From: Candidatus Methanomethylophilaceae archaeon
Lineage (GTDB): Archaea > Thermoplasmatota > Thermoplasmata > Methanomassiliicoccales > Methanomethylophilaceae
Length of the DNA: 64,000 nucleotides
Assembly: GCA_050944155.1 (NCBI GenBank)
Contig: JBMNQN010000003.1
Location: 1 to 64,000 of the forward strand
Direction of reading: 5' to 3'
Both the position numbers and the translations under genes were made by a program. Below the pieces are notes generated by a model that saw only the letters and a program-made list of their open reading frames with translations, was not told the origin of the DNA and searched no databases. This document shows positions 11,368 through 28,631 of the stretch, one piece after another. Numbering within the stretch: the first letter of the stretch is position 1; each line of letters begins with the position of its first letter.

Positions 11368-12431
11368 AGATAATACACCCGCGCCCCAATCCGATAGTCG
11401 CCGCCATGTACACTCTGAGGGACATGGACGTAGACGTAATCGTAATCCACGGTCCGGCGGGATGCGGATTCATGGCTTCCCGTTCCCTGGAAAATGCGGG
11501 CGTTCACGTGGTGACGTCGGCAATGAAGGAAACAGATCTTATCTTCGGAGCTTCGGACCAGCTGATCGAGACTCTGAAAACCGTGAAGGAGATGTTCAAT
11601 CCCAAAACAGTCGCCGTCATAGGTACATGTGCCAGTATGATAATCGGCGAAGACATGCAGGCTTCCGTGAAGCGTGCGGGATTGGACTGTACCGTGTTTG
11701 CGGTGGAGTCTCACGGATGCATGAAAAATAACATCGAAGGTGCCGTGAAGGCTTTGGAATCGGGATGTGCGGCGGGAATAATTTCCGAAGAGGAAACCCG
11801 GCGTCAGATAAAACTGATGAGAGCAGCCTCGGAACTGGAAAAAACCAAAGGTCTCGCAAGCAAAAGCTACATGAAACCGTCCTTCGGAGCAACAAAATAC
11901 GGCGTGTGCGGGAAGATATGCGATACGCTGTCTTCCGGAGGAAAAGTCGCCGTGGTTATGATTGCAAAAAAGGAACTGGCATATCGTTTTTCCGATATGT
12001 TTTCTGCAGTGTCCGAAGCGAAAAAGAAGCTCGGCGGAGAGATATTCCTGATTGGAAATCTGGACACCGACAAGGGTCTGCCGAGAATCAGAAAGTATGC
12101 CGAAAACATTACCGAGGAACTTAACGGACTCGGAGTGGATTTCGTATCCGCTGGCGGTCTGGACGAATATGCCTTGGTCGGCGAAAAAATGAAAGAAAAA
12201 GTCGACGCCTTTTCGCCGGATCTGACCGTGGTCATGGGGATATGCCACGCATATCCCGGTCTGAAGGAAAGCGACATACTCATTACGGATCAGCCGAGAC
12301 AGCTTTCCAACTATATTTCGGCCGGATTCCCCGATTCGGTGGGAGAAATCTCGTCCCATACGATGGTTATGGGAACCGACAGCATCATTCCTCTGGAGAC
12401 CGCGGAAACCCTCAGAGAGATGATCCGATGA
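11364..12431 (+). CDS. cfbD: Reductive cyclase catalytic subunit (NifD-like)
   Basis: HPRPNPIVAAMYTLRD, HGPAGC, GTCASMIIGED, AKKE, GGLDEY. Confidence 0.93.
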   Translation: MKIIHPRPNPIVAAMYTLRDMDVDVIVIHGPAGCGFMASRSLENAGVHVVTSAMKETDLIFGASDQLIETLKTVKEMFNPKTVAVIGTCASMIIGEDMQASVKRAGLDCTVFAVESHGCMKNNIEGAVKALESGCAAGIISEEETRRQIKLMRAASELEKTKGLASKSYMKPSFGATKYGVCGKICDTLSSGGKVAVVMIAKKELAYRFSDMFSAVSEAKKKLGGEIFLIGNLDTDKGLPRIRKYAENITEELNGLGVDFVSAGGLDEYALVGEKMKEKVDAFSPDLTVVMGICHAYPGLKESDILITDQPRQLSNYISAGFPDSVGEISSHTMVMGTDSIIPLETAETLREMIR

Positions 12432-13768
12432 AAGGCGTGGTCATCGCGGGCACCGGAAGCGGAGTGGGAAAAACATCCATCACCACGGGCCTCATAGCCA
12501 GACTGTCGAAAAAATACAAAGTTCAGGCATTCAAGGCGGGACCGGATTTCATAGACCCGATGTACCATTCGGCGGCTTCCGGACGCAGAGCGGGAAATTT
12601 GGATTCATTTATGATGAGCGACGAAGCCATACGGAAATCCGTGGGCTACGCCGCTTCCGACGCGGACATATGCATCGTCGAAGGGGTGAGGGGACTGTAC
12701 GAAAGCTCCTCTCCGTACAGCGACGAAGGTTCCACCGCCCGGTTGGCCAAGATTCTGGGATTTCCGGTAATACTGACTGTGGACGTCCGTTCTCTTAACA
12801 ACAGCGCCGCCGCCATCGTGAACGGATTTCAGGCGTTCGATCCGGACGTCAGAATCGAAGGACTGATTCTGAACAGAATATCCGGGAAACAGCACGAAGA
12901 CAAAATCGACGGCGCCATGAAAAGATACTGTAAACCGGAAGTGATCGGCAAAGTAAAAAAACTGCCGGAAAAGCCCACGAAAGAAAGGTATCTGGGTCTT
13001 GTCACTCCCTCCCCCGGGAGAAATCCTGATTTCGAGCCTTTGGAGGAGATGGTTTCCGACGTGGATATCGACAGGCTGATGGCTATTGCCGCCGATGCCG
13101 AACTCCCCGACTGTCCCGAAGGTCCCTACGTAAAACGGAAAACGGGTCTGAAAGCAGCAGTACCTCTGGACGATTCTTTCTGTTTTTACTACAGAGAGAA
13201 CATCGACTGTCTGGAGGCTTCCGGCATAAATATAGAACATTTTTCTCCGACGGAGGGGGACATGCTGCCTGATGCGGACATGTATCTTCTGGGCGGAGGA
13301 TACCCCGAACTCCATGCCGAAAAGATTTCCGAAAACAAAGATTTACTTCAGGGTCTGAAAAACGTATCCGAAGAAGGAAAGCCCGTTCTCGGAGAATGCG
13401 GCGGGATGACGGCCATGTGTCGCAGTTTAAAGAACATCTCCGGAGAAGTTTTCGGCATGGCGGGAATATTCGGTGCCGAAGCGGTTATGGATGGAATCAG
13501 GCACGGTCCGACATATGTTTCCGCGATTCCCGCCGAAAGCAATCCTCTTTTCGATTCTCCCGTGCGCGCTCACGAATACCACTATTCGAAGCTGATAACC
13601 GCAGAGAAGAATTTCGGCTACAGGCTCGAACGCGGAAACGGAATTCTTCCGGGATACGACGGTCTGGTTTACAAGCGGTCCCTGGGCACGTACATGCACC
13701 AGAACGCGCTTTCTTCTGCGGACTGGGCGGGCGGATTCGTAAGAGCATGCGAGCTCGTCCGTCAGTGA
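12428..13768 (+). CDS. cfbB: Ni-sirohydrochlorin a,c-diamide synthase (CbiA/CobB-like)
   Basis: SGVGKT, FKAGPDFIDP, EGVRGLYE, GGGYPE, GECGG, HEYHYS; ATG 12428. Confidence 0.88.
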   Translation: MKGVVIAGTGSGVGKTSITTGLIARLSKKYKVQAFKAGPDFIDPMYHSAASGRRAGNLDSFMMSDEAIRKSVGYAASDADICIVEGVRGLYESSSPYSDEGSTARLAKILGFPVILTVDVRSLNNSAAAIVNGFQAFDPDVRIEGLILNRISGKQHEDKIDGAMKRYCKPEVIGKVKKLPEKPTKERYLGLVTPSPGRNPDFEPLEEMVSDVDIDRLMAIAADAELPDCPEGPYVKRKTGLKAAVPLDDSFCFYYRENIDCLEASGINIEHFSPTEGDMLPDADMYLLGGGYPELHAEKISENKDLLQGLKNVSEEGKPVLGECGGMTAMCRSLKNISGEVFGMAGIFGAEAVMDGIRHGPTYVSAIPAESNPLFDSPVRAHEYHYSKLITAEKNFGYRLERGNGILPGYDGLVYKRSLGTYMHQNALSSADWAGGFVRACELVRQ

Positions 13769-13769
13769 T

Positions 13770-15305
13770 TCAGAAACGGTTCGAAACCTTTTCCATCAGA
13801 CCTTTGGACTGTTCTATCTCCCCTTCGGTAAGGCTCAGGTCGCTGCGCAGCCGATAGTCCTTCGAAATGTCCATACATTCGATTTTTGCCGTAAGGGTTC
13901 CGTCCTCTTTGGCCCTGAACGTCACTTTTATGGGGGTTTCCCTCGTTATTCCCGAAGGAAGTTCCATTTCGAAGTTGCCTATGGGAACCCCGTCGATCAG
14001 GTCGGTTCTGATTTCGCTTTCTTTGTCCGTCGCCGCATTTTCGAATATTTCCACGAGAACCGAAGGCTGTTTCTCCTCCACCGGGTAGTAAATTTTTACG
14101 CTTTCGATGGGCAGAACGTCGTTACGGTAAATGATGTTGGAAATCATCTCTTTTCCGTTGTAGCTGACTCTGACTCCGAAGGTTTTGCTCAGGATGTTTT
14201 TGACCGAAAGCGCATCTTCTTCTTTTTCAGCATTCTCTTTCCTTGATTTGGAAAATATCGCAGCTCCTTTCGCGACGGATTGGTCTGGATCGAAAAGTCT
14301 TATAGTCATGCCGGGGAAGGCTTCGGATATTCCGTTTTTCACCTGGGGCATTCTGGACGATCCGCCGACAAGGATAATTTCGTCTATGTCTTCCGCGCCG
14401 AATCCTTTGGACGAGAGCGCCGATTTTATTACCTCGACCGTGCGGTTCATCAGGTGTGCGGTGACGTTTTCGAATTCGGTTCTTGATATCGTATAGACGG
14501 CTTTTCTCCCGTTAACGGAAAGGGTGCCTCTGGTGGATTCGGCGGTGGAAAGTCTCTTCTTTATCGCTTCGGTATCCAGATCCAGGAGGACGGATATCTC
14601 TTCGTCGTCGTCCATATCTTCCACGGGGACTCCGGTTGCCGCGGACACCTTTTCCTTGATTAAAGAAGCCAAGGCTTTGTCCCAGTCCTTTCCTCCCAGC
14701 AGACGTTCTCCGTCCGTGGCCACGGCGGTGAACGAATTTCCTTCGATTTCCAGAATAGTAACGTCGAAGGTTCCGCCTCCCAGGTCGTAGACCAGCACTC
14801 TCTTCTTTCCCCCGTCCCCCCCGTAGCCGAAAGATATGGCGGCCGCCGTCGGTTCGTTGATTATCGTCACGTCCTCGAGACCGGCGATTCTTCCCGCCAT
14901 CTTGGTCGAGTCCCTTTCGTTCTGACCGAAGTAGGCGGGACACGTAATCACGGCCTTCTTCAAATCGCAGTTATGGCTTTCGTTGAAATCGTTGATGATT
15001 TTTCTGAGAATCGCCGCGGACAGCGTGACCGGAGTGTACTTGTCCCCGTCGATAACGACGGAAAAATCGGTCCCCACCTGTCTTTTGATTCCCGTTATTA
15101 TTCTGTCCGCCGGGTACATCACGGCCATGTCTTTCGCGGGAGAGCCGACTATTATTTCGCCGTTCTCGTTGAAAAGAATCACCGACGGAGTGGTATCCTC
15201 CTGTTCGAAATTCTTTTCTACGGTAGGATTTCCGTTCCCGTCGATGTATGCCAGGCAAGAGTACGTCGTTCCCAAATCAATCCCTATGCAGTATTCGTCT
15301 TCCAT
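13770..15305 (-). CDS. Specialised Hsp70 family protein (511 aa, no alpha-helical lid)
   Basis: GIDLGTTYS, AVITCPAYF, INEPTAAA, VYDLGGGTFD, LGGKDWD, ILVGGSSRMP; divergent SBD-beta; too short for canonical DnaK. Confidence 0.9.
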   Translation of the reverse strand: MEDEYCIGIDLGTTYSCLAYIDGNGNPTVEKNFEQEDTTPSVILFNENGEIIVGSPAKDMAVMYPADRIITGIKRQVGTDFSVVIDGDKYTPVTLSAAILRKIINDFNESHNCDLKKAVITCPAYFGQNERDSTKMAGRIAGLEDVTIINEPTAAAISFGYGGDGGKKRVLVYDLGGGTFDVTILEIEGNSFTAVATDGERLLGGKDWDKALASLIKEKVSAATGVPVEDMDDDEEISVLLDLDTEAIKKRLSTAESTRGTLSVNGRKAVYTISRTEFENVTAHLMNRTVEVIKSALSSKGFGAEDIDEIILVGGSSRMPQVKNGISEAFPGMTIRLFDPDQSVAKGAAIFSKSRKENAEKEEDALSVKNILSKTFGVRVSYNGKEMISNIIYRNDVLPIESVKIYYPVEEKQPSVLVEIFENAATDKESEIRTDLIDGVPIGNFEMELPSGITRETPIKVTFRAKEDGTLTAKIECMDISKDYRLRSDLSLTEGEIEQSKGLMEKVSNRF

Positions 15306-15311
15306 TTCCCA

Positions 15312-15938
15312 TCATCTTCCGTTTTGACTCTGACTTTTTTTGTAAACGGCGACTCTTTCCTTCCAAAGCACTCTGTCGCCGTACATATAGCATTCCGAAT
15401 ACCTTTCGGCCACGGTTCCGTCTTTGGCCGAGTCCTTGTTCGGAATAACGCTTACAATCTTCTGGCACTTCGTATTTAAAATATTTTCGTCCGTGTTTTT
15501 TATGACGACGCCCGCATCCGTAAGCAGGTTCTCTATATCCACGGAATAGGCGCCGAACGAATCGATAATCTCTTCGGAACTCAGACTCCCGGCATGTTTT
15601 TTCATATCTCTGCTCAGTCTGATGAAGTCCTCTCTCATTACCGAAAGTCCTTCCAGAATTTTCATGAATTTCAGATTCTCCGTTCCGCTGTTTCCGGCGG
15701 CGGACGTTTTTACCGTATCGTCGATTTCGCGGAGCATTTTCTTTATTTCTTCCGCGTCCTCTTTGAAGGAAGAGTCGGTCTTTGCGGTTGTTTTTGTTTT
15801 CGGAGCCGCTTTTTTCCTGGTTGTCGTTCTTTTCTTCGCCGGGGCGGTGGTTTTCGGAGCGGAAGTTTTTTTCTTGGCTTCTTCCGCAGCTTCCGCGAAA
15901 TGTCCTTTTTCAGGAATGGGCTCTTTGTTTTCCGCCAT
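15312..15938 (-). CDS. GrpE-like protein with a K/A/T/P-rich N-terminal tail
   Basis: Coiled-coil middle, then a GrpE-like beta end (GTVAE....Y...RVL....V.VYK); sits next to Hsp70. Confidence 0.65.
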   Translation of the reverse strand: MAENKEPIPEKGHFAEAAEEAKKKTSAPKTTAPAKKRTTTRKKAAPKTKTTAKTDSSFKEDAEEIKKMLREIDDTVKTSAAGNSGTENLKFMKILEGLSVMREDFIRLSRDMKKHAGSLSSEEIIDSFGAYSVDIENLLTDAGVVIKNTDENILNTKCQKIVSVIPNKDSAKDGTVAERYSECYMYGDRVLWKERVAVYKKSQSQNGR

Positions 15939-15943
15939 GGTTT

Positions 15944-17200
15944 TCAGATCTCCTTTTCGTTTTTACGGTTGTTTTCGGTATTCGAGTCATAGCAGCTGAG
16001 CAGCCAAATCAGCGGGTCTTCTACCCTGAACGGGGCTATCCCCCTGTCCAGAAGACTGCCTTCCGGATTTCCGCCGATGGCGGAAACCGCGAAATAGCTG
16101 TGTTTTTCGAAATTATCTACGGCTTCTATGAAGTCCGGGGAAATTACGCGGCGCAGATATTCTTCCAGTTCTGCGTTGATCTGTTCGAAATTCTCCGAAT
16201 CGCATATGCCCCTTTCCCTGGGCATGCGCACGGAGGAACAGGCTCCCAGAAGAACCTTCTCTTCTTCGTCGTTCTCCGGAGATTTCATGAGTGTGTCGCA
16301 TTTCGTCAGAACGATTGCCACCGGCGTCGGTATTTTTGTTCCGGCGGGAATTCCCGTCTCGGAGCGTATCATTCCTATCACCGACGAAATGTAATTCAGG
16401 GCGCTGTCGGAGGGAGCGGGTTTTCCGTCCGCCTTTATCCTTTCGTTAACGTATGGGATCTGAAGGGGATCTATCAGAAATATTATGCCGGAGGCTCTGG
16501 AAACAAACAGATCGAGAGCGACTCCCATGAGCCTGTCTTTCGGTCCCTCTCCGGCGGTATCGAAAAGTGCCAGAGTCACCGTGCTTTTTGTTTCGTCTTC
16601 GGGGAATTTCAGGTAGTATATCATCGGTTCCCTGAATTCCCGGATGTTTTCGTAAGTACGCGTAGGGGGAAGTTTTCTTCCGTCTTCGTACAGCCGTTTG
16701 TAGTAGTACTTACGGTATTTCATCGTGGTTCTGTCCGATGCCGGAATCAGCACGGCGTTGAATTCCGGGGAAAAAGAATTTTTAATCTGATTCAGAAGGA
16801 CGGAAACGTAGTGGCTTTTTCCCGCGCCCTTGGCTCCGATTACGACGAAAATTCTGCTGTCTCCGTTTTCGGCTTCAGGAGGTATGGGGCTGTGGCATAC
16901 GGGACAAAGACGTTTGTAGACCGGCCTTCCGCACACGTCGCATGTTCCAGCGGAATTTCTGACTATGTGCTGTTTTACCGTTACGGCATCCGGACCGTCG
17001 GGATTTCTTCCTAGAAACAGGCTGTTTTCCACGTCTATCTCTTCGTCTTCGGATGCGGTCCTGTATCTGCGTCCGTTCGGTACCGTTCCTTCGTCGATGG
17101 ATTTCACGAACATGCGGGTGCAGGATTGGTTGGTGCATTGGTAGTGAATTCCGTTCATATCCACCGCATTGAAACAGAACGGACAGAGGTATTCGGTCAT
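15944..17200 (-). CDS. Zn-ribbon plus TRAFAC-class GTPase
   Basis: CPFC..CTNQSC..CDVC..CPVC; G1 GAKGAGKS, G3 DTAG, G4 TKCD, G5 SAIG; C-terminal PFRVEDPLIWLL. Confidence 0.8.
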   Translation of the reverse strand: MTEYLCPFCFNAVDMNGIHYQCTNQSCTRMFVKSIDEGTVPNGRRYRTASEDEEIDVENSLFLGRNPDGPDAVTVKQHIVRNSAGTCDVCGRPVYKRLCPVCHSPIPPEAENGDSRIFVVIGAKGAGKSHYVSVLLNQIKNSFSPEFNAVLIPASDRTTMKYRKYYYKRLYEDGRKLPPTRTYENIREFREPMIYYLKFPEDETKSTVTLALFDTAGEGPKDRLMGVALDLFVSRASGIIFLIDPLQIPYVNERIKADGKPAPSDSALNYISSVIGMIRSETGIPAGTKIPTPVAIVLTKCDTLMKSPENDEEEKVLLGACSSVRMPRERGICDSENFEQINAELEEYLRRVISPDFIEAVDNFEKHSYFAVSAIGGNPEGSLLDRGIAPFRVEDPLIWLLSCYDSNTENNRKNEKEI

Positions 17201-20200
17201 AATTCGGCCCTCCCTTTGAGCGGATGGACGAATCTGAAACTGTTGTAATCTTCGTCCTTCTCAAAGAACAGTCTTATTTTTTCCGTGTCGGTGCCGGGTT
17301 TGGCTTCGAAGCGGAAGACACAGCGTCCTTTGCTGATCAGCATGGGAACTTCGGACATCCATAGGACTTCTCCGTCGTTCCTGCGGAGGGGAATCCCTTC
17401 GGGAGAGAGAACGGCCATGATCGGAGGTACGAATTCCACGTTGTCCGGAGTTTTCATCGAGACTCTGATGTCGGTGCGGTCCTTTTTGGAATGATCGGCA
17501 TCTATGGTGTATCTGATTTTTCTGCAGGTTTCGGCGGAAACGTCGAAAGTCATCCCCCGGGATGCCATCTTTTTGCCCTCCACGTCGTAAACGGCAAACA
17601 GGGTGACGGTTCTCTTCGTACGGTTTCCCATGTGTATCCTTATCGTTTTGTCGGCCGAGTAGGCCTCTGCGGAAACCGTTATCCTTTCCCCGTCGAGATC
17701 GTCCGGGCCTTTGGCGGGAGCTCCCGAATCGGTGATTACGGCAACGGCGGAATCGGTTCCCCTGGGCCAGGTCATGCTGATAATGCAGTCTCCGCCGGAA
17801 ATTTTCTTTTCCACGTCCCTGAACGGTTTAAGTTCCGCGACTCTGACTTCTTTTCCTCTTACCGCGTACCTTCCCACGGGAATCATGGGGTAAAGATACT
17901 GTACCGCTCCGTCAGGCAGAGAGAATCTCATCTTTCCGGTCGTTTTTTCTATGGGAACGATTTTGGTCATCCAGGATTCCGCATCGCTCATTTTCACCAG
18001 AGTGCCGTACATACGGATGCTTTTCGGCGACGAGTACAGTTCGGCGTTTTCGTCTCCCGTCCATTCCGCGGTGAATGTTCCGTCCGACTTGTTCCACGAA
18101 ACCTTCAGATCTCTGACGGGGTCGGGAAGGACCGATGTGGCGCCGGAAAACACCGTTCCGGATGAACGTTTTATCCTGCCGTCGGGCGTATCGTATTCGG
18201 CAACGAACAGATAGTGATAGGTCTGTCCGCCAACGAGTCCCCTGTCTTCTATTTCCTGTCCGGTTACCTGCAGTTCTTTTTCGTCGGATTCGGAATCCGC
18301 GGTTTTTCTCCACACGCGGACCCTTGAGCAGTTTGCGGGTTTGACGAAACTTATGCGCAACCCGTCTTCCAGAGGGTCTATGGAAACGTTCTGCACTTCC
18401 GAATAAACGACGGCGGGTCCGCAGGTAGCTCCCTCTTCGGAAAGTACGCCCCATCTTTTGGAGAGTACCGTGTAGTAATAATCTATGCCGGGTTCGGCGG
18501 TTTCGTCGAGAAAATAACCGGTGGAAACTTCTGCAAGAGGTATATCGTCATCTTCCGTGTTGGGGCGCGTGTATCTCTCCCTGTATATGCAGAAGGTAAG
18601 GCCGTCGCGGTCTTTCGGCACCGCATATTTCACGAGAATTTTTCCTTCCTTTATTATGACGGAAGCATCGGCCGGGGGGTCTGGAGGATATTCGCTGAGG
18701 AGGGACTGTACCAGCAGATGGTCGGGACACCTTTCGGCGGCCGCAACGTAAAGTTCCATGCGGGAACTTCTGCTGTCCGCTTTTCCGGCTTTTTGATAGA
18801 GGGCTTCCGCTTCGGCGATTCTCTGTTCCGATTCTTCGTAGATTTTTTCTGTCGCAGGGTCCTCTTCGAGGAAGCGTCCGAACTGTACCAGTAAGTTTTT
18901 GGTTCTGTCGACGGCTTCACAGTATCTTCTGAAGCTGTATGATTGTTCTATCTTTCTTTTTCCCACGTAAAGCTGGGTTTTCGCAAGTCCCACTTTCTTT
19001 TCGAGAGATATTATCGCCTCGTACGTGGAATATTCGGCTTTGAGTTCGGAAAGCTCCTTTTCGGCCGCGATTACCAGTCCGGACTTCGCGAGCTCTTCCA
19101 CGTGTTTTTCGGATTCCAGAGCTTTCCCCAGTCCTTTGCGGATATCGAACCCGCATTTCACGCACGCAATGTTCAGAGAAGATTGTCTGGTTCCGCATCT
19201 GGGACATTCCATTTTTATGGTGTGTCCGCACACGGAACAGCACATTATTTCCGTACCGGTTTCGACGAACGCCTTGCATTCGGGACACCTGATCATACGG
19301 CTCTCGCCGTCGGAGAAATTGGCTATGAATTTTTTTCTTATGCAGAAATCTTCCAGAATCCTGATTGCCGTTTCCGGATTTTCGTTAGTAAGGTATATGG
19401 AAAGAAGTTCGTCGATGTAAGTTCTGTCGATGGGCCTGGTGTATTCTTCCTCGATTATGTCCTTAACCGGAGAAAGAGCCCTCTGGCACATTCCGTATTC
19501 TATTAGTTCGGAAAGTTTTTCGTCGGGGCGCATGGCCATTTTTACCGCTCTGATCGACTGTATGTACGTGTCCTGATTCGGAAGAATTTCCGGACGCACG
19601 CTGTTCACTCTTTTCTCGCAGAGGTCGAATGCGCTTCTGATCTGTTCGAAGGAAGAGGAATCGGTAAGTTTTCCGATACCCAGTTCCAAATCGGAGTTGT
19701 TTATCAGACTGTTGATCATCTCCTGCGGCGTGAACGAATCCACCGTCTGAAGGGCTTTGAAAGCGTTGGAAACGGTATCGTCGACTACGGAAGAAAAATC
19801 GTAATCGGTTACGCCCGCAAGTTTCACGAGTTCCTCCGGCCGGATGCCGTCCCACTTCATTCTTTTGGCCAGAATCTCCGCGGTTCCGGAGATTCTCACG
19901 GGAGTGCCGTCGTGAAGAATCACCGAGTCTTTTCTCAGTTTGGAAGCTTTCGCCGTAAGAAGTACGCGGCCCTCTTCGAACTCTTTTTCCCTCAGGGAAG
20001 GATCGGACATGACGCGCCGCATGTCGGGAACCATATCCAGATACGACTGGTTCCTGAACCGCATGCCCACGTCGTTCTGCCTGTTGCGGCTTTCTTCCGA
20101 CCATTTCTTCTCTTTTTTGTCGATGATGCCGGAGACGGTTTCCGCACTGTACGTTTCTTCTCTGAACGGGTCGAGTCCCAGAAGCATGCAGTAGCTGTCC

Positions 20201-20211
20201 CTTTTCGCCAT
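17197..20211 (-). CDS. 1004-aa multidomain protein: J-domain-like N-terminus, double Zn-ribbon, helical region, FN3/Ig-like repeats
   Basis: YCMLLGLDP start; CPEC/CSVC/CPRC/CVKC; FN3-like FLDETAEPGIDYYYTV, IEDRGLVGGQTYHY, PDPVRDLKVSW. Confidence 0.65.
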   Translation of the reverse strand: MAKRDSYCMLLGLDPFREETYSAETVSGIIDKKEKKWSEESRNRQNDVGMRFRNQSYLDMVPDMRRVMSDPSLREKEFEEGRVLLTAKASKLRKDSVILHDGTPVRISGTAEILAKRMKWDGIRPEELVKLAGVTDYDFSSVVDDTVSNAFKALQTVDSFTPQEMINSLINNSDLELGIGKLTDSSSFEQIRSAFDLCEKRVNSVRPEILPNQDTYIQSIRAVKMAMRPDEKLSELIEYGMCQRALSPVKDIIEEEYTRPIDRTYIDELLSIYLTNENPETAIRILEDFCIRKKFIANFSDGESRMIRCPECKAFVETGTEIMCCSVCGHTIKMECPRCGTRQSSLNIACVKCGFDIRKGLGKALESEKHVEELAKSGLVIAAEKELSELKAEYSTYEAIISLEKKVGLAKTQLYVGKRKIEQSYSFRRYCEAVDRTKNLLVQFGRFLEEDPATEKIYEESEQRIAEAEALYQKAGKADSRSSRMELYVAAAERCPDHLLVQSLLSEYPPDPPADASVIIKEGKILVKYAVPKDRDGLTFCIYRERYTRPNTEDDDIPLAEVSTGYFLDETAEPGIDYYYTVLSKRWGVLSEEGATCGPAVVYSEVQNVSIDPLEDGLRISFVKPANCSRVRVWRKTADSESDEKELQVTGQEIEDRGLVGGQTYHYLFVAEYDTPDGRIKRSSGTVFSGATSVLPDPVRDLKVSWNKSDGTFTAEWTGDENAELYSSPKSIRMYGTLVKMSDAESWMTKIVPIEKTTGKMRFSLPDGAVQYLYPMIPVGRYAVRGKEVRVAELKPFRDVEKKISGGDCIISMTWPRGTDSAVAVITDSGAPAKGPDDLDGERITVSAEAYSADKTIRIHMGNRTKRTVTLFAVYDVEGKKMASRGMTFDVSAETCRKIRYTIDADHSKKDRTDIRVSMKTPDNVEFVPPIMAVLSPEGIPLRRNDGEVLWMSEVPMLISKGRCVFRFEAKPGTDTEKIRLFFEKDEDYNSFRFVHPLKGRAEL

Positions 20212-20212
20212 A

Positions 20213-22237
20213 TCATTCTCCGGTTGTTCCGCTTTCGCGGATTCCCATGTTTCCGGAGCCGATTGCGGTGGCTATGGTTCCGAAAGTATCGCTCAGACAG
20301 TCCAGTGTGGTGTACAGTGCCCCCTCTTCCACGGTGGCTAGCTGTCTCAGGAAAGAAGTGTCGGCGTCGCCGAATCCCACGGCAACCACGGCAATACCGT
20401 CTTTCCTGCATTCCATCGCGCGGGTGACCGCGGCGTTGCGGTTTCCCCACACTCCGTCGGTGAGTATCACAATGGCGTTCGCGCCGGGAGCGTTCACGAG
20501 CATTCTGCCCGCCTCGCCGAAAGGATCCGCGTCCGTTCCCCTGCCTGCCATGCTGACTCTGAGACGGTTAATCGATGCCGTTATCGCGTAACGGTCGGAC
20601 GTCAGCTCCCTTACGGTTTTCGCTTTGTCGCCGAAAACCACCAGTCCGAATCTGGTATCGATTCCTTCCAGTTCGTTTACGAACCGTATGACGGCTTCCT
20701 TGGCCGTTTCCAGGGGTTTGTCCTTCATGCTTCTGGACAAATCGATTGCGATGACGATGTTTCTTCTGACGGGTATCTCGGAAGTTCTGTCTTCGGGAGT
20801 TTCTCCCATCCAGGAAAGGTCCTCGTCGAGTTTTTCCGATTTTACTTCGAGACTCCTTCCCTTCTGGAAGGCGGAAACGCTGACGACCCCGTTTTCGTTG
20901 TAGCTGTATTCGATTTCGACGATTTCCCCTTCACCGGAGTTGCTGATTCCCCTGACTTTCATCTTGGCCAGGGCAAAACAGTCCAGCGGATTCCGGGATT
21001 CTCCCTGCAGTGTGTACAGTTCGATGAATTCCGTAAGATTGCCGGGATTGATTTTGAAGGGTTTCCTGACCGAGGCGGGAATCTTCGAATTGCGGGGAAT
21101 CATGATTTCGTTGATGTATTTTTTACCGTCCTTCCTCACGGACAGAACTCCCAGGCTGTGGGAAGTTACGTCCGTAACGGTTCTCCTCCCCCCGGCCCTG
21201 CGGTGCACCAGGGCGGCTCCTTTGGCAACCGCAAGATCCGTATCCGCATGATTCACGATTTCCGTGCCCGAAATCCTTCTCAGTTCTTCGGGAAGTCCCG
21301 GAAGACGGGTGGAGCCCCCTACGAGCAGTATCTCGTCTATGTCTTTCCAGGTCAGTCCGGCTTCTTTCAGGGCTCTGACGCACACTTCTTCGGTTGCGGC
21401 GAAAAGAGGGCGGGAGAGTTCGACGAACTTTTCTTTCGACAGCGAATATTCGGCGGAATCCTTTCCGTATTCCAGTAAGACGGAGATGCTGTCCCTTTCG
21501 GAAAATTCTTTTTTCAGATTTTCCGCGGCTACGATGAGACTGTTCTTGGCCGCCGGATCTTCTCTGAGGTCGATTCCGAAATCGTCCGCGAACCTGTCGC
21601 AGAAATATCCCGTCAGAATCTGGTCCCAGTCCTTGCCGCCGAGAATGCGGCTGCCGTCGGTTCCAAGAACGGTGAGTGTGTTTTTCTCGATGCGTACTAT
21701 CGTTATGTCGAATGTTCCTCCGCCCAGATCGTAAACCATGACGGTTTTGTCGTTGAGGCTGCCGTAACCGTAGGATATGGCGGCCGCGGTGGGTTCGTTT
21801 ATTATTTTGTCGACCTTTATTCCGCATCTTTCTCCCGCACGGATTGTGGCGGTTCTCTGTGGGTCGTTGAAGTAAGCGGGGACGGTTATTACTGCCGAGT
21901 CAATCTTTTTTCCCAGTCTTTTTTCCGCGCCGGATATCAGGTACCCGAGGAGAATCGCGGAAAGATCTTCGGCGGAATAGGACCGTCCGCGGGCGTTCAC
22001 GGAAAAACCCGTGTCGCCCATCGCACGTTTGAAGGATGCGGCAACCGTTCCCTTTCCTTTGGCCTGCATGGTTTTGGCGGCTTCTCCGGCGTACACGCTG
22101 CCGTCGTCGCTGAAACATATGACCGACGGAGTCAGAAGATTTCCTTCCGCGTCCGGTACGACTTCCGCGGAAGACGTTTTTTCGTCGTAATAAGCCACTG
22201 CCGAGTAGGTTGTCCCCAAATCAATGCCAACCCTCAT
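20213..22237 (-). CDS. Hsp70-vWA fusion protein
   Basis: Complete Hsp70 ATPase motifs and SBD-beta, then a vWA domain with MIDAS DLSRS, GTD, ILTDG and AVGFG. Confidence 0.88.
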   Translation of the reverse strand: MRVGIDLGTTYSAVAYYDEKTSSAEVVPDAEGNLLTPSVICFSDDGSVYAGEAAKTMQAKGKGTVAASFKRAMGDTGFSVNARGRSYSAEDLSAILLGYLISGAEKRLGKKIDSAVITVPAYFNDPQRTATIRAGERCGIKVDKIINEPTAAAISYGYGSLNDKTVMVYDLGGGTFDITIVRIEKNTLTVLGTDGSRILGGKDWDQILTGYFCDRFADDFGIDLREDPAAKNSLIVAAENLKKEFSERDSISVLLEYGKDSAEYSLSKEKFVELSRPLFAATEEVCVRALKEAGLTWKDIDEILLVGGSTRLPGLPEELRRISGTEIVNHADTDLAVAKGAALVHRRAGGRRTVTDVTSHSLGVLSVRKDGKKYINEIMIPRNSKIPASVRKPFKINPGNLTEFIELYTLQGESRNPLDCFALAKMKVRGISNSGEGEIVEIEYSYNENGVVSVSAFQKGRSLEVKSEKLDEDLSWMGETPEDRTSEIPVRRNIVIAIDLSRSMKDKPLETAKEAVIRFVNELEGIDTRFGLVVFGDKAKTVRELTSDRYAITASINRLRVSMAGRGTDADPFGEAGRMLVNAPGANAIVILTDGVWGNRNAAVTRAMECRKDGIAVVAVGFGDADTSFLRQLATVEEGALYTTLDCLSDTFGTIATAIGSGNMGIRESGTTGE

Positions 22238-22436
22238 CCATGCATCCCGTTTACGCGTACGCGCTGACGATATTTAATATGTAGGAGGTGGCTGCGATTT
22301 TCGTAGCGGTGATGCTAATGCATCGGAATTCCGCGTCGTAATTTTCTCGATTACGAATTTCGTAATGTCATGCGGGAAGGCGGATTTCCGCTAAACGGGT
22401 AAGCAAATCTAATTACCGACTCCGCGATTCCGTGGC

Positions 22437-23387
22437 ATGGATAACGACGAAGCGGATGCGCTGTTCCTGAAAGCGATATCCTACATTTCGGGCGCGGGAG
22501 GTTCCGAAGTAAACCCCGCGGAAGCTTTGGCGATTTTCGAAAGCCTCGCGGAAAACGGACACGGAAACGGAATGTTCGGCCTCGCGGAAATGCTGATGGT
22601 GGGGGCCGGAACCGAACGGAACGCAGAGAGGGCAAAGGAGCTTTATACGAAAGCCGCCGAAGCGGGACACATCGAATCTAAGTTCAGACTGGGTATGATT
22701 CACACCGGAAATTTCGGATTCCCCGCCGATCCGAAAAAATCTTTCGAAAATTTCCTCGAAGCCGCCGAAGCCGGATTGCCGGAAGCGTTCGCTCCCGCTG
22801 GAGACTGTTATTTCTACGGTTCCGGAACCGAACAGAATTTTACGGAAGCCTTCCGCTGGTTTTCCAAAGCTGCGGAATTCAAAGATCCCGTTGCGATGTT
22901 CAAGTGTGCGTACATGTACGAATCGGGAACCGGAACGGAAGCCGACGAAGAGAAATCCGTATCGCTTTTCCGCGAATCCGCGGAAGCCGGATTGCCGGAA
23001 GCACAGATGAAAATGGCCGATTTGGCACATTCGGGAAAGACGGAAGGCGGTGCGGAAAAGGCCGCGGAATGGTACCGCAGGGCATCGGAAGCGGGAATGA
23101 CCGCGGCGACGGTAAGTCTCGGCACCCTATACTACGAAGGAAAAGGGGTTCCCAAGGATTACGCGAAAGCGTACGGGCTCTACTCCGAAGCGGAGAAACA
23201 GGGAGATTCCGATGCGGCGATGCTCAAGGGCATTATGGAGATGAAAGGTCTCGGAACAGAAAAAGATCCGGAAAAAGCCATGAAATCCATATCCAGAGCA
23301 GCGGAGCTGGGAAATCAGGAAGCAAAGGCGTTCCTGGAAAATATGCGCAGGGCGCAGAACACCCAGTTCGTCAGAATAGACGGATAA
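22437..23387 (+). CDS. Sel1-like repeat protein
   Basis: Repeated A..LG..Y..G.G...D...A..W...AAE.G units; no signal peptide. Confidence 0.9.
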   Translation: MDNDEADALFLKAISYISGAGGSEVNPAEALAIFESLAENGHGNGMFGLAEMLMVGAGTERNAERAKELYTKAAEAGHIESKFRLGMIHTGNFGFPADPKKSFENFLEAAEAGLPEAFAPAGDCYFYGSGTEQNFTEAFRWFSKAAEFKDPVAMFKCAYMYESGTGTEADEEKSVSLFRESAEAGLPEAQMKMADLAHSGKTEGGAEKAAEWYRRASEAGMTAATVSLGTLYYEGKGVPKDYAKAYGLYSEAEKQGDSDAAMLKGIMEMKGLGTEKDPEKAMKSISRAAELGNQEAKAFLENMRRAQNTQFVRIDG

Positions 23388-23389
23388 AT

Positions 23390-23524
23390 TCACTCCGAGG
23401 GTTCGAAACAGTCCTTCGACGCACCGCAATCGGGACAGCTCCAATCGTCGGGCAGGTCGCTGAAGGGAACCCCCTCGGCTTCTTCGTCGTAGACGTGGCC
23501 GCAGAGTATGCAGACGTACTTCAT
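23390..23524 (-). CDS. Rubredoxin (44 aa; below the ORF-track cutoff)
   Basis: Own translation: [44 protein letters not shown] (two CxxCG motifs, LPDDW). Confidence 0.92.
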
Positions 23525-23548
23525 GGGACGTAATCTCATCCGATATAT

Positions 23549-24964
23549 TTAGTCAATCTCGAGCTGTTTTCCCGATTTTTCCGAATCGGGGACCGCCGCA
23601 GCTATAACGACCGTAACGGCGGAAAGAAGAGCGGCAAGAATTATTGCGGCGCGGAAACCCGACGAAAATTCTCCCGCAGTAAGGAGATCGAAGCCCGTTC
23701 CCGGCACTCCGGTGAATATGGAAAAGAAGGCGGCAAACACTGCCGTTCCGATGCCCATCCCCAGATAAATCGCCAAAGACGACAGGGACGAACCCATTTT
23801 TTCGTGTCCCGAGGGAGAGTGTTCGACGATACGGGCGGCCATGGGCCCTCCGCAGAGACCCCAGGAAGTCCCCATCATGATTACGACGGGAACAAGAATC
23901 AGAGAGCCGTTTTCCGCGTTCGCAAACAGAAGCAGTATCGTGGACACAAGCAGTATGGAAATACCCAGTACGGAAATCCGTCTTCTTCCGTATCTGTCCG
24001 AATATCTTCCGGCGGGGAGACAGATTATCGCGGTCATGAGGGACGACACAAAAAGATACACACCTATGGCCGCATAGGAGAATTCCAGGCAGAGGGCCAT
24101 ATAAAACGGAATCAGGTAGAACGGTCCCATGTAAGAAAGATTGAAAAGGGTGAAAGAAAGAAGGGACGAGGAGAATTTTCCCGACTTGAAAATACGCACG
24201 TCTATGACGGGTTTGTCGAAAGACAGTTCCCTCAATATGAAAAGAATAAGGAATATCACACACAGAACTGCCGAAACAATAACGGTTTTCAGGGCGTCCG
24301 GGTCGCTTAATCTTTCCAGAGAAAGTATGCCGGACGCTATGGCCGCGAACATGAAGGCCGAACCCATGAGATCCAGGGGTCTTTTTTCCGTGGGTCCGTC
24401 CTTCGGAATCGCCTTTACGGCAAAGGGAACCGCCAGAATTCCGATGGGGATATTTATCAAAAATATCCAGTGCCAGGATAGGAATTCCGTAAGGATTCCT
24501 CCCAGTACCGGACCTACTGCGTAACCCACAGAACTTCCCAGAGTCAGGGTGCTCAGGGCAAAACCCAATTTCTTCGGGGAAACGTATTTCACGCACAGCA
24601 TCGGCGCGGATGCGGCAATCATGGCGCCCCCAGTTCCCTGAAGAATTCTGGAAGCGAAAAGCATCGGCAGAGAATAGGAAATTCCGCAGAGAAGGGAAGC
24701 GACGGTGAATATGCCGAAACCGTAAACGAAAACTTTCTTCAGTGCTCCCCGGTCGGCGATTCTGCCGAAAACCAATATCAGTCCGGCAAGGGTCATGAAA
24801 TAAAGTACGATAACCCAGGATACCGAAGACGTGTCCGTTCCGAAGGCGGACGCAATCGCAGGCATGGCGACGTTTACGACGCTCCCGTCCATTCCGTCCA
24901 TGAAAATTGCCACTGCGACTGCCGCCAGCAGAAGTTTTTCTGAATAAACGGGAGATTTTGCCAT
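23549..24964 (-). CDS. MFS transporter, DHA2/EmrB-like
   Basis: D.SVVNVAMP, FGRIADRG, RILQG.GG, GPVLGG, WHWIFLINIPIG. Confidence 0.88.
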   Translation of the reverse strand: MAKSPVYSEKLLLAAVAVAIFMDGMDGSVVNVAMPAIASAFGTDTSSVSWVIVLYFMTLAGLILVFGRIADRGALKKVFVYGFGIFTVASLLCGISYSLPMLFASRILQGTGGAMIAASAPMLCVKYVSPKKLGFALSTLTLGSSVGYAVGPVLGGILTEFLSWHWIFLINIPIGILAVPFAVKAIPKDGPTEKRPLDLMGSAFMFAAIASGILSLERLSDPDALKTVIVSAVLCVIFLILFILRELSFDKPVIDVRIFKSGKFSSSLLSFTLFNLSYMGPFYLIPFYMALCLEFSYAAIGVYLFVSSLMTAIICLPAGRYSDRYGRRRISVLGISILLVSTILLLFANAENGSLILVPVVIMMGTSWGLCGGPMAARIVEHSPSGHEKMGSSLSSLAIYLGMGIGTAVFAAFFSIFTGVPGTGFDLLTAGEFSSGFRAAIILAALLSAVTVVIAAAVPDSEKSGKQLEID

Positions 24965-25036
24965 GGTGCGGATTATCCTGCTTTTTCTATAAGTATGCCT
25001 GGGACGGACGGAAAAATCATTTCCGTCACCGACATA

Positions 25037-25654
25037 TCAGATCAGTCCTCTCAGCGTTTCGATTTCGTAAGTGGGTTCCTGTTCTATGCTTTCTCCGGTG
25101 CGGTTCACGTAAACGCTGTCCATTCCGATGGCGGCAGCTGCAACAATGTCCGTTTCCCCGTCTCCCACGAAGACCGCTTCGTCTTTCGGAACCGGGAATT
25201 TTTCCAGACATTTTTCCAGACATTCGGGGTCGGGCTTCTGTCTGGAAACGTCGTCCCTTCCCACTATGAAATCTATGTACTCGGTAAGGTTGTGAAGAGC
25301 CAGTACGTTTTTCGTTCTGCCGTGGGAGCTCCTGGTCGCTATGCAAATTTCGGTTCCCTTGCCGTTTATTTCGCGGAGAACGTGTTCAGTTTCGGGATAA
25401 GGCGTACTCCGGCCGTCCAGAAACAGGCTGAATTCTTCGATTGCGGTATTCTCGAATTCTTCGAAAGACACCGGAGGCGACGTGAAGCGGCCGTACGTGT
25501 CAACGAAAGATTCGTTGATGAAATAATCCAGATCAGACGGATCGTACGCGAATCCCAGTCTGTCCATTATTTTCCCGTAACAGAGTTTCAGTCCGCCGGA
25601 AGAATCGACCAGGGTTCCGTCGAGGTCGAAGATATAAAGGGAGTACTTTCTCAT
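25037..25654 (-). CDS. HAD-superfamily hydrolase (phosphoglycolate phosphatase-like)
   Basis: FDLDGTLVDS, KPDPE, FVGD..TDI. Confidence 0.88.
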   Translation of the reverse strand: MRKYSLYIFDLDGTLVDSSGGLKLCYGKIMDRLGFAYDPSDLDYFINESFVDTYGRFTSPPVSFEEFENTAIEEFSLFLDGRSTPYPETEHVLREINGKGTEICIATRSSHGRTKNVLALHNLTEYIDFIVGRDDVSRQKPDPECLEKCLEKFPVPKDEAVFVGDGETDIVAAAAIGMDSVYVNRTGESIEQEPTYEIETLRGLI

Positions 25655-25761
25655 TGCGGCGTAAATACGTGAAGGTATTATTCATGGTTTACGTGCCCGT
25701 TCCGCATATTCCCGGAAAGGGGGACGGCAACGGTTGTCCGCGGTTCCGTTCATTCAGTGGT

Positions 25762-26244
25762 ATGTTCGGCAGAAAGAAACCCGCCGAGAGCGCTGAGCTG
25801 ACACCCGAACAGAAGATGTTCATGTATACGGGGATGGCCGTAAAGAATATGCAGGCGCTGGAAGCCAATCTGGGACTCATGATGTGGTACCATACCGTTC
25901 TTAACGGTCTCAGGTCCGGATCCGGAAGGGAGAACTACGAAAAGTATGCGGAAAAGGCCGACAGACTCGCCGAAGAAATTTCCGCCATGACCATGGGAGA
26001 CGTTCTGCGCACGGTGAGGGGAACGGATTTGATGAAAAAATCCGACCTGAGAGACCTGAGTTCTCTGCTGGGCGACAGAAACACAATCGTTCACAGAATG
26101 TACAGAACCGAAATCGGAGAGTCGGAAATCGAAGAAAAAATCGCTTTCCTTTCGAAAACGATAGAATCGGCGGACAGGATTAATTCTATACTTGTTTCCA
26201 TAATTTCGGATTTGGAAAACATTTACGAAAACACGGAAATCTGA
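25762..26244 (+). CDS. Hypothetical helical protein
   Basis: Host-like codon usage from ATG 25762 (MFGRKK...); TMG...RN..VH motif; no confident family. Confidence 0.6.
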   Translation: MFGRKKPAESAELTPEQKMFMYTGMAVKNMQALEANLGLMMWYHTVLNGLRSGSGRENYEKYAEKADRLAEEISAMTMGDVLRTVRGTDLMKKSDLRDLSSLLGDRNTIVHRMYRTEIGESEIEEKIAFLSKTIESADRINSILVSIISDLENIYENTEI

Positions 26245-26290
26245 TTTCCGACGTGATGTCTTTTAAAATCCGACGGTGTTCCGATTCTTT

Positions 26291-27961: not shown

Positions 27962-27962
27962 T

Positions 27963-28631
27963 TCAGTTTCCGTCGGCCATGTCGTACCACCGGTCGGCTT
28001 CGTCCCGATCCGCGCGGACTCCGTCGCCGGTTGCGTACATATTGCCCAGAAGAATGCGAGCGCTTTTGCTGCCTCCCATTGCGGCGGAGACAAGCCAGTC
28101 GACAGCCGTATCTATGTCTTTTTCGACTCCGCATCCTGTTTTGTAAAACTGGCCGAGAACGAACTGGGCATCAGAGTGGCCTCTTTCGGCGGCCATGGCG
28201 ACCCATTTCGCAGCTTCCTCGAAATCTCTGCCGACCGTGTCCCCTTCGAAATATACGAGTCCCAGGGAGTACTGGGCGCGGGCATCCCCTTCGTTTGCGG
28301 GGACGGAAAACAGTTCGACGGCCTTGTCAATATCTTTTTTTACGCCGTATCCGCGGAAATACATCTTTCCCAGGTAGTACATGGCGCTGCGGCTACCGCC
28401 TTCCGAAGCACGGGCGAACCACTCGGCCGCCGCGTTAAGGTCCCGGGATATTCCCTGACCCCTCGCGTACATGAGACCCAGACAGAATTCTCCGTCGGCA
28501 TATCCCGCATCCGTGGCTCTAATCACGGCGGAATATGCGGCGGCATAGTCTTTTTCCGATCTGCTTCTCAGTACGGCTTTGGCCCATTCGAGAGACTCGA
28601 GAACGTCTGTGTCTCTTCCGGCACCCTCCAT
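27963..28631 (-). CDS. Sel1-like repeat protein
   Basis: About 5 Sel1 repeats (AQY.LG..Y..G...D...A.W). Confidence 0.9.
   Translation of the reverse strand: MEGAGRDTDVLESLEWAKAVLRSRSEKDYAAAYSAVIRATDAGYADGEFCLGLMYARGQGISRDLNAAAEWFARASEGGSRSAMYYLGKMYFRGYGVKKDIDKAVELFSVPANEGDARAQYSLGLVYFEGDTVGRDFEEAAKWVAMAAERGHSDAQFVLGQFYKTGCGVEKDIDTAVDWLVSAAMGGSKSARILLGNMYATGDGVRADRDEADRWYDMADGN

Follow-up and report, generated by a model that had tools for sequence, protein, structure and literature searches.

A GAP1-less, fully soluble dual-Hsp70 and GTPase operon of Methanomethylophilaceae, probably derived from DO-GTPase/GAP1-N2 systems

Our analysis concerns a five-gene operon at positions 13,770 to 22,237 of a 64-kb window (the whole stretch of DNA analysed, positions 1 to 64,000 of contig JBMNQN010000003.1) from a Candidatus Methanomethylophilaceae archaeon. 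The operon encodes an Hsp70 fused to a von Willebrand factor A (vWA) domain, a scaffold protein of 1004 amino acids (aa), a zinc-ribbon GTPase, a GrpE-like protein and a second, lidless Hsp70. Sequence comparison indicates that it is very probably homologous to described GTPase/Hsp70 systems. We consider it likely that the operon derives from the DO-GTPase/GAP1-N2 "HSP70-GrpE" system and has become vertically fixed in part of the Methanomethylophilaceae, in a form with no GAP1, a single GTPase and only soluble proteins.

Results

Five packed genes encode two divergent Hsp70s, a scaffold, a GTPase and a GrpE-like protein

The operon consists of five tightly packed open reading frames (ORFs) on the minus strand, with intergenic spacings of 1, -4, 5 and 6 nucleotides (nt) in the ORF listing of the window; the start of the GTPase gene overlaps the stop of the scaffold gene by 4 nt (Table 1). 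A first-pass annotation, made from the letters and ORFs of this DNA, had proposed the same packing, and its coordinates and gaps are identical to those of the listing. Its gene-by-gene reading (Hsp70-vWA, J-like/zinc-ribbon/FN3 protein, zinc-ribbon TRAFAC GTPase, GrpE-like protein, lidless Hsp70) matches Pfam, our profile comparisons and the structure model. It had also seen no transmembrane segments and no nuclease or toxin domain, and our scans agree on both counts. A simple hydropathy scan found no membrane-helix-like 19-residue hydrophobic segment in the five proteins, the sole value above 1.6 being 1.79, inside the GTPase core, and Pfam, NCBIfam and PADLOC scans returned no nuclease or toxin domain for any of them. 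The PADLOC defence models had no match among the operon proteins (best, a HerA P-loop at 0.049), and neither NCBIfam nor PADLOC has a name for the operon as a system.

Table 1. Features of the operon and its immediate upstream region.
Feature	Coordinates	Strand	Basis or remark
Gene 1, Hsp70-vWA fusion, 674 aa	20213..22237	-	Pfam HSP70 1.1e-104 and VWA 2e-19
Gene 2, scaffold (J-like/double zinc ribbon/FN3), 1004 aa	17197..20211	-	Alignment, profiles, AlphaFold2, Foldseek
Gene 3, DO-GTPase2-type TRAFAC GTPase with two N-terminal zinc ribbons, 418 aa	15944..17200	-	PF19993
Gene 4, GrpE-like protein, 208 aa	15312..15938	-	Pfam GrpE PF01025
Gene 5, lidless Hsp70, 511 aa	13770..15305	-	Pfam HSP70 2e-96
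Sel1-repeat protein, 316 aa, no membrane-helix-like segment	22437..23387	+	Sel1 4.3e-49
TATA-box-like ATATTAAATA	22271..22280	-	34-43 nt upstream of the gene 1 start codon; sequence reading

The Hsp70-vWA protein has a nucleotide-binding domain (residues ~1-345), a beta substrate-binding domain (~355-465) and, replacing the helical lid, a vWA domain (493-641) that keeps the DxSxS of the metal-ion-dependent adhesion site (MIDAS) motif, as AIDLSRS. The gene 5 product consists of a nucleotide-binding domain and a beta substrate-binding domain; it covers positions 2-510 of the 599 in the HSP70 profile and is thus lidless, stopping shortly past the start of the lid. In a 9-sequence alignment that includes the genome's DnaK and bacterial orthologues, both proteins keep every invariant nucleotide-binding motif, which confirms the earlier statement that their ATPase motifs are intact. 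With the NCBIfam DnaK model, genes 1 and 5 reach 342 and 314 bits (cut-off 648), and with the HscA models 297 and 281 bits (cut-off 708); the two proteins are 28% and 33% identical to the genome's canonical DnaK. The source genome (1.04 Mb, 27 contigs, 92% complete) carries a separate, canonical grpE-dnaK-dnaJ locus on another contig (C4), with Pfam matches to GrpE at 3.5e-41 and HSP70 at 1.1e-224 and a full DnaJ that has J, CXXCXGXG and C-terminal domains. These two results, DnaK scores below the cut-off and a canonical locus elsewhere, bear out the initial view that the operon is not the housekeeping one. Two database matches touching such genes in other archaeal loci were discarded: hits to PF10712 (NAD-specific glutamate dehydrogenase) at L110:12931-14466 (-) and L106:1618-3270 (+) are spurious and lie antisense to Hsp70 genes. 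Antisense PF10712 hits on Hsp70 genes are a trap for automatic annotation.

The gene 4 product has a basic, low-complexity N-terminus (residues ~1-60) followed by GrpE homology (PF01025, 5e-07, 30 bits, cut-off 25.8). Its orthologues of 283-285 aa likewise match GrpE.

The GTPase scores 28.1 bits against DO-GTPase2 (PF19993; cut-off 27) and 29.6 bits in the genome search, and most of its homologues carry a precomputed PF19993 annotation. Its motifs are a Walker A GAKGAGKS, a Walker B DTAGE with the family glutamate, and the specificity motif TKCD. In an alignment of 31 sequences, C6, C9, C22, C27, C87, C90, C99, C102, G122, G127, D214, K300 and D302 are invariant and K128, S129 and E218 are at least 90% conserved. 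The eight cysteines fall into two CxxC...CxxC-type groups (C6/C9/C22/C27 and C87/C90/C99/C102), the two zinc ribbons.

The scaffold is laid out as a first J-like region (residues ~5-75), a second (~174-240), a double zinc ribbon with 8 Cys invariant in a 37-sequence alignment (309-353), a helical region (357-505) and an FN3-like array (~512-998). An AlphaFold2 model built on the same alignment (predicted local distance difference test, pLDDT, 87.5) shows a helical first 300 residues and five beta-sandwich FN3-like domains at ~512-998, and its C-terminal half matches four-domain fibronectin III fragments (FnIII 7-10) with a Foldseek E of 3e-12. A separate model of the N-terminal 300 residues reached a pLDDT of 93.1. 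Pfam fn3 is weak in bacterial scaffold orthologues too (E 1.7e-5 to 9.5e-3).

For the J-like regions, the scaffold family profile matched J domains of known structure, with E 1.1e-4 for residues 170-235 (DNAJB8) and E 1.3e-3 for residues 6-70, and hhalign against 29 canonical J domains of the order gave probabilities of 81% (E 1.2e-5) and 49% (E 1.8e-4), with 0.1-1.4% for three control regions. At E up to 1, Pfam DnaJ picks up 3/36 members of the scaffold family, the best at 8e-4. In both J-like domains other residues stand in place of the HPD tripeptide, which is not conserved. An alignment-based complex prediction of scaffold residues 1-510 with the GTPase gave a score of 0.00 and a mark of 0.32, and carries no weight either way. 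Among 1.84 billion cluster representatives, 1048 are related to the scaffold at E <= 0.001; among the best 150 of these clusters, full-length hits are ~1000 aa and are mostly aligned end to end.

The architecture matches a class of systems predicted by comparative genomics

Kaur, Burroughs, Iyer and Aravind (eLife 2020; PMC7159879) defined "GTPase-centric" systems by the pairing of a DO-GTPase with GAP1. In the consulted text of that paper, a DO-GTPase belongs to the TRAFAC GTPases, has a glutamate in Walker B and in most cases bears zinc ribbons at its N-terminus, and GAP1, composed of GAP1-N2, GAP1-M and GAP1-C, is usually encoded just downstream of it; GAP1-N2-type systems also carry an FNIII-repeat protein. 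About 14% of GAP1-N2-type systems, a "second theme" found mainly in actinobacteria and firmicutes, add HSP70 and GrpE. A subset of this theme has a second HSP70, one without a peptide-binding domain, and the FNIII protein carries a DnaJ domain or TPR repeats as a fusion. The same text places GTPase-centric systems "in a few archaea", proposes a conflict role for the whole class and stresses a mobile, fast-diversifying pattern. The consulted part of a 2026 preprint merely cites the DO-GTPase clade, and the literature that we searched held no experimental study of a DO-GTPase/Hsp70-class system.

The archaeal operon has several of these parts. Gene 3 encodes a TRAFAC GTPase with the Walker B glutamate and the two N-terminal zinc ribbons of GAP1-N2 systems, the five beta-sandwich domains of the scaffold model and their Foldseek match correspond to the FNIII repeats, and Pfam identifies HSP70, GrpE and a second HSP70 among the window proteins. 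The first-pass annotation had labelled the operon a candidate undescribed system and had suggested a link to NTP-dependent conflict systems. The link was correct and the label is not supported: the architecture matches the HSP70-GrpE theme predicted in silico by Kaur et al (PMC7159879), as far as its consulted text goes. A check for an already characterised counterpart thus ends in a match, to a class described by comparative genomics alone.

Bacterial relatives carry orthologues of all five proteins together with GAP1

We scanned species-representative genomes with an alignment of GTPase homologues (bacterial query), which yielded at least 586 loci, and kept the best 80; these were annotated by our own ORF calling, phmmer and a GAP1 set built with jackhmmer. 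Among these best 80 bacterial loci, 34 encode an Hsp70, 22 both Hsp70 types and 17 an Hsp70 with a GrpE-like protein; a scaffold homologue is present in 49, GAP1 in 70 and two or more GTPases in 37. A typical order is GrpE, Hsp70, Hsp70-vWA, J/zinc-ribbon/FN3, GTPase, GAP1 (~860 aa) and a second GTPase (~465 aa). All five window proteins have orthologues in such loci that align end to end. Pfam confirmed GAP1-N2 and GAP1-M in the three bacterial proteins examined and DO-GTPase2 in the second GTPases, which also have strongly hydrophobic segments in the hydropathy scan.

GAP1 is encoded in 30 of the 34 Hsp70-bearing bacterial loci. Three of those without it (L031, L075, L081) lie on short contigs of 6-8 kb, and those of L031 and L075 stop at the GTPase gene or shortly past it; L043 may be the sole Hsp70-bearing bacterial locus truly without GAP1. 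The bacterial class is patchy across phyla, and near-identical GTPases occur in different families; in the GTPase tree (66 sequences; unrooted, drawn with a midpoint root), one Bacteroidota locus, for instance, falls inside a Bacillota clade. Plasmid matches were confined to two Rhodococcus megaplasmids at 26% identity, and the phage records gave no match to the system.

Many Clostridium loci (L047-L078, L086) have DO-GTPase and GAP1 without Hsp70. They have in common a different fixed set of ORFs after GAP1 (~470, 580 and 1135 aa), as well as a short, 330-360-aa relative of the scaffold N-terminus. These loci may represent the tubulin theme of Kaur et al (PMC7159879).

GAP1 and the second GTPase are absent from the archaeal operon

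None of the five window proteins has a GAP1 match in Pfam. PF20013 scored above its cut-off in 0/61 sampled family genomes, the window's included; the one sub-threshold hit contains a stop codon. As a control, our own GAP1 profile (78 sequences, 852 positions) picked up 72 ORFs of the bacterial loci; its best E was 0.65 when run with all filters off on the six-frame translation of the whole genome and on the 10 archaeal loci. PF19993 matches once in the whole genome, so no second DO-GTPase was found there.

Three genomes of another genus of the same family (g24) contain a second, divergent system whose scaffold is 24-27% identical and whose gene order is GTPase, GAP1, Hsp70-vWA, J/FN3. Here our profile detected GAP1 in all three genomes, and Pfam found GAP1-N2 (7.5e-18) with GAP1-M in one locus (L107) and GAP1-M alone in another (L106). 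Because GAP1 is detected in a divergent system of the same archaeal family, its absence from the conserved operon is no failure of detection. In the second system's locus L107 (genome G156), GrpE is fused behind NUDIX in a 588-aa protein at 487-2253 (+) (NUDIX 2.8e-12, GrpE 6.4e-11). An apparent GTPase-less variant in three further archaeal loci (L109-L111) was rejected when tblastn found the GTPase in 3/3.

In the tree the nine archaeal GTPases form one clade with a support of 100. Within it, the seven sequences without GAP1 group together (support 99), as sister to the two from GAP1-bearing loci. The parsimonious account would be that GAP1 and the membrane GTPase were lost on the stem leading to the conserved archaeal operon, because every other branch of the tree has GAP1.

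The operon is syntenic, common to seven genera and under purifying selection

The order Hsp70-vWA, scaffold, GTPase, (GrpE-like), Hsp70 is kept in all 10 family loci that we fetched, which is the conserved unit that a neighbourhood survey had been suggested to look for. The scaffold gene is present in 97 of 150 sampled family genomes and is grouped by genus: 11/15 in g1, 16/18 in g3, 2/2 in g7, 20/21 in g8, 6/6 in g22, 2/2 in g23 and 39/39 in g24. In 11 other genera of the family it was not found, apart from one marginal hit, and the GTPase was found in 0/16 genomes from other families of the order. The genomes of the lineage are small, at 0.9-1.3 Mb, and carriers of the operon include several complete ones of the family.

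On one side the operon is flanked by a CobB/CobQ-like gene, which we take to be cfbB. The two adjoin in 7/7 loci of the window's genus and stand tail to tail, 1 nt apart, in the window; in three loci of other genera cfbB does not occur within the 20-kb stretches examined. The adjacency to cfbB is genus-specific synteny, and a functional link to F430 biosynthesis was rejected, as the adjacency is confined to the genus.

Omega, determined by the Nei-Gojobori method for six same-genus pairs, lies at 0.04-0.14 for every gene and domain of the operon, including 0.04-0.13 for the FN3 array, and at 0.05-0.10 for cfbB. Purifying selection on the operon is as strong as on cfbB. Within the family we saw no sign of mobility, patchiness, variable effector or sensor parts or defence-island linkage, whereas the bacterial relatives do look mobile.

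The GrpE-like gene occurs in 86 of 150 other family genomes and accompanies the system everywhere except in the window's genus. Because it does so outside the genus and was not found in 15 of 15 relatives within it, the window preserves the ancestral five-gene state. Two near-complete genomes of the same genus (99% and 95%), G002 (locus L115) and G008 (L116), show a deletion of Hsp70-vWA, scaffold and GTPase. Among the neighbours retained in G002 are a P-type ATPase (L018 encodes one that is 66% identical), an ORF of ArsR size, and Sel1 and MFS genes.

Neighbouring genes, a candidate promoter and contigs from RNA libraries

The genes on the cfbB side form an F430-biosynthesis set (NifH-like, CbiX, Mur-ligase-like, nitrogenase-like and CobB/CobQ-like), and on the other side lie a divergent gene for a Sel1-repeat protein and one for an MFS transporter. 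Linkage to a defence island, which had been proposed as a check, is not borne out by this neighbourhood of F430-biosynthesis genes, Sel1-repeat protein and MFS transporter. A Sel1 homologue lies on the Hsp70-vWA side in 9/10 archaeal loci, the tenth of which begins at a contig end, and in L111 it is directly upstream and co-oriented. The Sel1-repeat protein is a possible, uncertain sixth component; plain synteny also fits.

The TATA-box-like ATATTAAATA is a candidate archaeal promoter of the operon. A scan for sigma-70 promoters and terminators, with models not suited to archaea, gave no excess over shuffled sequences.

Contigs of RNA libraries from three studies map to the operon. Of the words sampled from the operon, 78% and 41% recur in metatranscriptomic contigs of biogas and anaerobic-digester origin, and contigs of run X1 cover 29/30 bins of positions 11500-24500 at >=99% identity. 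The longest contig on the operon (2127 nt, 20110-22236) extends from the interior of the scaffold gene to the start codon of Hsp70-vWA, contig ends being weak evidence. Runs X4 and X5 cover only 8-12/30 bins, and we draw no conclusion on habitat.

Further along the window, a 225-aa ORF without a Pfam family (24995-25672, +) precedes a 196-aa ORF (25654-26244, +) with a sub-threshold match to the RiboL-PSP HEPN family (2.2e-4, 21.6 bits against a cut-off of 28.4). Two long ORFs overlap on opposite strands, one of 635 aa at 26186-28093 (-), which has no Pfam match, and one of 561 aa at 26276-27961 (+). No tRNA gene and no Rfam family at the gathering threshold was found in the 64-kb window.

Discussion

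Our data point to an archaeal branch of the GTPase-centric HSP70-GrpE systems that has probably shed GAP1 and the membrane GTPase and is passed on vertically. We propose a working cycle for it. The scaffold would hold a protein target through its five FN3 domains and helical region, while its two degenerate, HPD-less J-like domains would dock the two lidless Hsp70 paralogues. The vWA domain that takes the place of the lid could use its MIDAS to grip an acidic motif in the target or in a partner protein, adding a second, metal-dependent grip, and the private GrpE-like factor would reset the Hsp70s. A GTP-dependent switch or timer that licenses the cycle may be provided by the zinc-ribbon GTPase, whose translation is coupled to that of the scaffold. 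The predicted output is the ATP-driven remodelling, sequestration or assembly of the bound protein, with no enzymatic effector.

Given its synteny, its near-universal presence in seven genera and the strong purifying selection on it, the operon probably acts in the archaeal lineage on an invariant target, either a cellular client or a conserved feature of an invader; a fast-changing arms-race partner is less likely. A fixed cellular role in this lineage is quite conceivable, if short of probable. A tentative version of that role is that a bacterial conflict module was domesticated in methanogens of digesters and guts as a constitutive, cytosolic, GTP-gated dual-Hsp70 machine acting on a conserved cellular target. 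In such a machine one Hsp70 would bear a MIDAS "hand", and GAP1 and the membrane GTPase would become unnecessary. If true, it would be the first Hsp70 system in which a dedicated GTPase, in place of a canonical J-domain, licenses the cycle.

Several results weigh against this account of the operon and its function. Every step of the mechanism is our own deduction. The DO-GTPase2 score is marginal. Pfam fn3 and DnaJ have no match in the window scaffold, which gives weak zinc-ribbon hits only. A Foldseek search of the N-terminal 300-residue model against the PDB returned nothing at E <= 0.001, and a wide VIA-align search with that model found generic helical hairpins (Z 6-7.7), with the HscB J-domain at rank 50 (Z 6.0); both outcomes fit the presence of a J fold as well as its absence. 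Without HPD, the J-like domains may not stimulate ATPase activity at all. The operon is dispensable: a GrpE-like gene was found in none of 15 relatives from the genus, and G002 and G008 keep only the lidless Hsp70, beside cfbB. The GTPase tree is unrooted, so that the loss of GAP1 rests on parsimony, and the bacterial loci compared are the top 80 out of at least 586, selected with a bacterial query. The RNA-library contigs neither prove transcription nor exclude carried-over DNA. Finally, strong conservation is compatible with a defence role.

That last point bears on an active antiviral or conflict system, in which the FN3 domains would sense an invader protein, the GTPase would set a threshold and the Hsp70s would assemble into or power an effector state that stops the infection or is lethal to the cell. 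We regard it as doubtful, while giving it real weight. The operon is homologous to a class predicted, in the consulted text of PMC7159879, to be of this kind, but it has no recognisable effector and no PADLOC match. The bacterial class is patchy and shares near-identical GTPases between families; the system is nevertheless missing from phage records and, on plasmids, restricted to the two Rhodococcus megaplasmids (26% identity). Within the archaeal family, dispensability in one genus and the second, divergent copy in some genomes fit a conflict system, whereas the fixed position in the genus and near-universal presence in seven genera do not. Nor do the neighbours (F430, Sel1 and MFS genes in place of defence genes), the FN3 omega of 0.04-0.13, which is not that of a diversifying sensor, or the steady scaffold length of ~1000 aa among full-length hits in the best 150 of 1048 clusters.

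The operon's place next to cfbB in 7/7 same-genus loci, 1 nt away in the window, and an evolution resembling that of a housekeeping gene could suggest a dedicated chaperone for one methanogen client, possibly in the F430/methyl-coenzyme M reductase pathway. This is highly improbable: cfbB is not within 20 kb in the three other-genus loci, orthologous bacterial systems occur in non-methanogens, the operon converges on cfbB and is not co-transcribed with it, and two methanogen genomes, G002 and G008, do without genes 1-3. Decay of an acquired bacterial system into a relic that no longer functions would account for the stepwise loss in the genus (from five genes in the window to four in most relatives and the lidless Hsp70 alone in G002 and G008) and suits the small genomes of the lineage, but we give it very little credence given five intact reading frames, an omega of ~0.1, conserved catalytic motifs and RNA-library contigs over the operon. 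A categorically new system, suggested by the missing PADLOC or NCBIfam name and by a searched literature free of experimental studies, is scarcely tenable, since the combination of HSP70, GrpE, second HSP70, DnaJ-fused FNIII protein and zinc-ribbon DO-GTPase is described in the consulted text of PMC7159879, the GTPase and GAP1 families are in Pfam and all five proteins have bacterial orthologues. That reading is refuted at the level of architecture; the GAP1-less archaeal form alone is possibly unreported.

The preferred reading, a reduced and vertically fixed HSP70-GrpE system, matters for several reasons. The DO-GTPase/Hsp70 class rests on one comparative-genomics paper (PMC7159879, in its consulted text). 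Of the versions compared here, the archaeal one is the smallest: it consists of five soluble proteins, with neither GAP1 nor membrane parts, and is thereby tractable for biochemistry and cryo-EM, and the five-gene, four-gene and one-gene states offer natural comparison strains. Its vertical, syntenic, purifying pattern challenges the view of every such system as an arms-race weapon. HPD-less J-like domains and a GTPase controlling an Hsp70 cycle would, if true, be a new mode of Hsp70 regulation.

Comparison with known systems

E. coli HscA/HscB and HscC/DjlB-DjlC are specialised Hsp70s with dedicated J-type partners. The archaeal operon likewise pairs paralogous Hsp70 with its own putative J-type partner, but those systems have no GTPase, vWA or FN3 component, and the window has no Fe-S context. 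With the housekeeping GrpE-DnaK-DnaJ machine it shares the ATPase core of Hsp70, a GrpE-fold exchange factor and, putatively, a J-type partner; unlike that machine, its Hsp70s are without a lid and its J-like domains without HPD.

Among conflict systems, the Hsp70-like proteins of CoCoNuT (PMC11090510) were considered as relatives and rejected, as the consulted text describes McrBC-type systems of unrelated architecture. The MoxR-vWA ternary systems, as described in the consulted text of PMC7159879, resemble the operon in combining an NTPase chaperone, a peptide-binding vWA and a third, sensor-like component; in the window, however, the chaperone is an Hsp70 and not a MoxR AAA+ protein, and the vWA is fused to it.

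The closest counterpart is the GAP1-N2-type HSP70-GrpE theme in the consulted text of PMC7159879. Both have a zinc-ribbon TRAFAC GTPase, two HSP70s, their own GrpE and an FNIII-repeat protein, plus vWA; the J-type domain of that FNIII protein has a putative counterpart in the J-like regions of the archaeal scaffold. The archaeal operon differs in having no GAP1, one of the two defining components, and neither a second, membrane-anchored GTPase nor any predicted membrane component. Its order is rearranged to Hsp70-vWA, J/FN3, GTPase, GrpE, Hsp70. Both of its Hsp70s retain the beta substrate-binding domain, unlike the second HSP70 of the subset described without a peptide-binding domain (PMC7159879). 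This form, without GAP1, with a single GTPase, all-soluble and vertically fixed, does not appear in the consulted text of PMC7159879 and is possibly unreported. In place of the mobile, diversifying pattern described there, the archaeal operon is inherited vertically and maintained by purifying selection.

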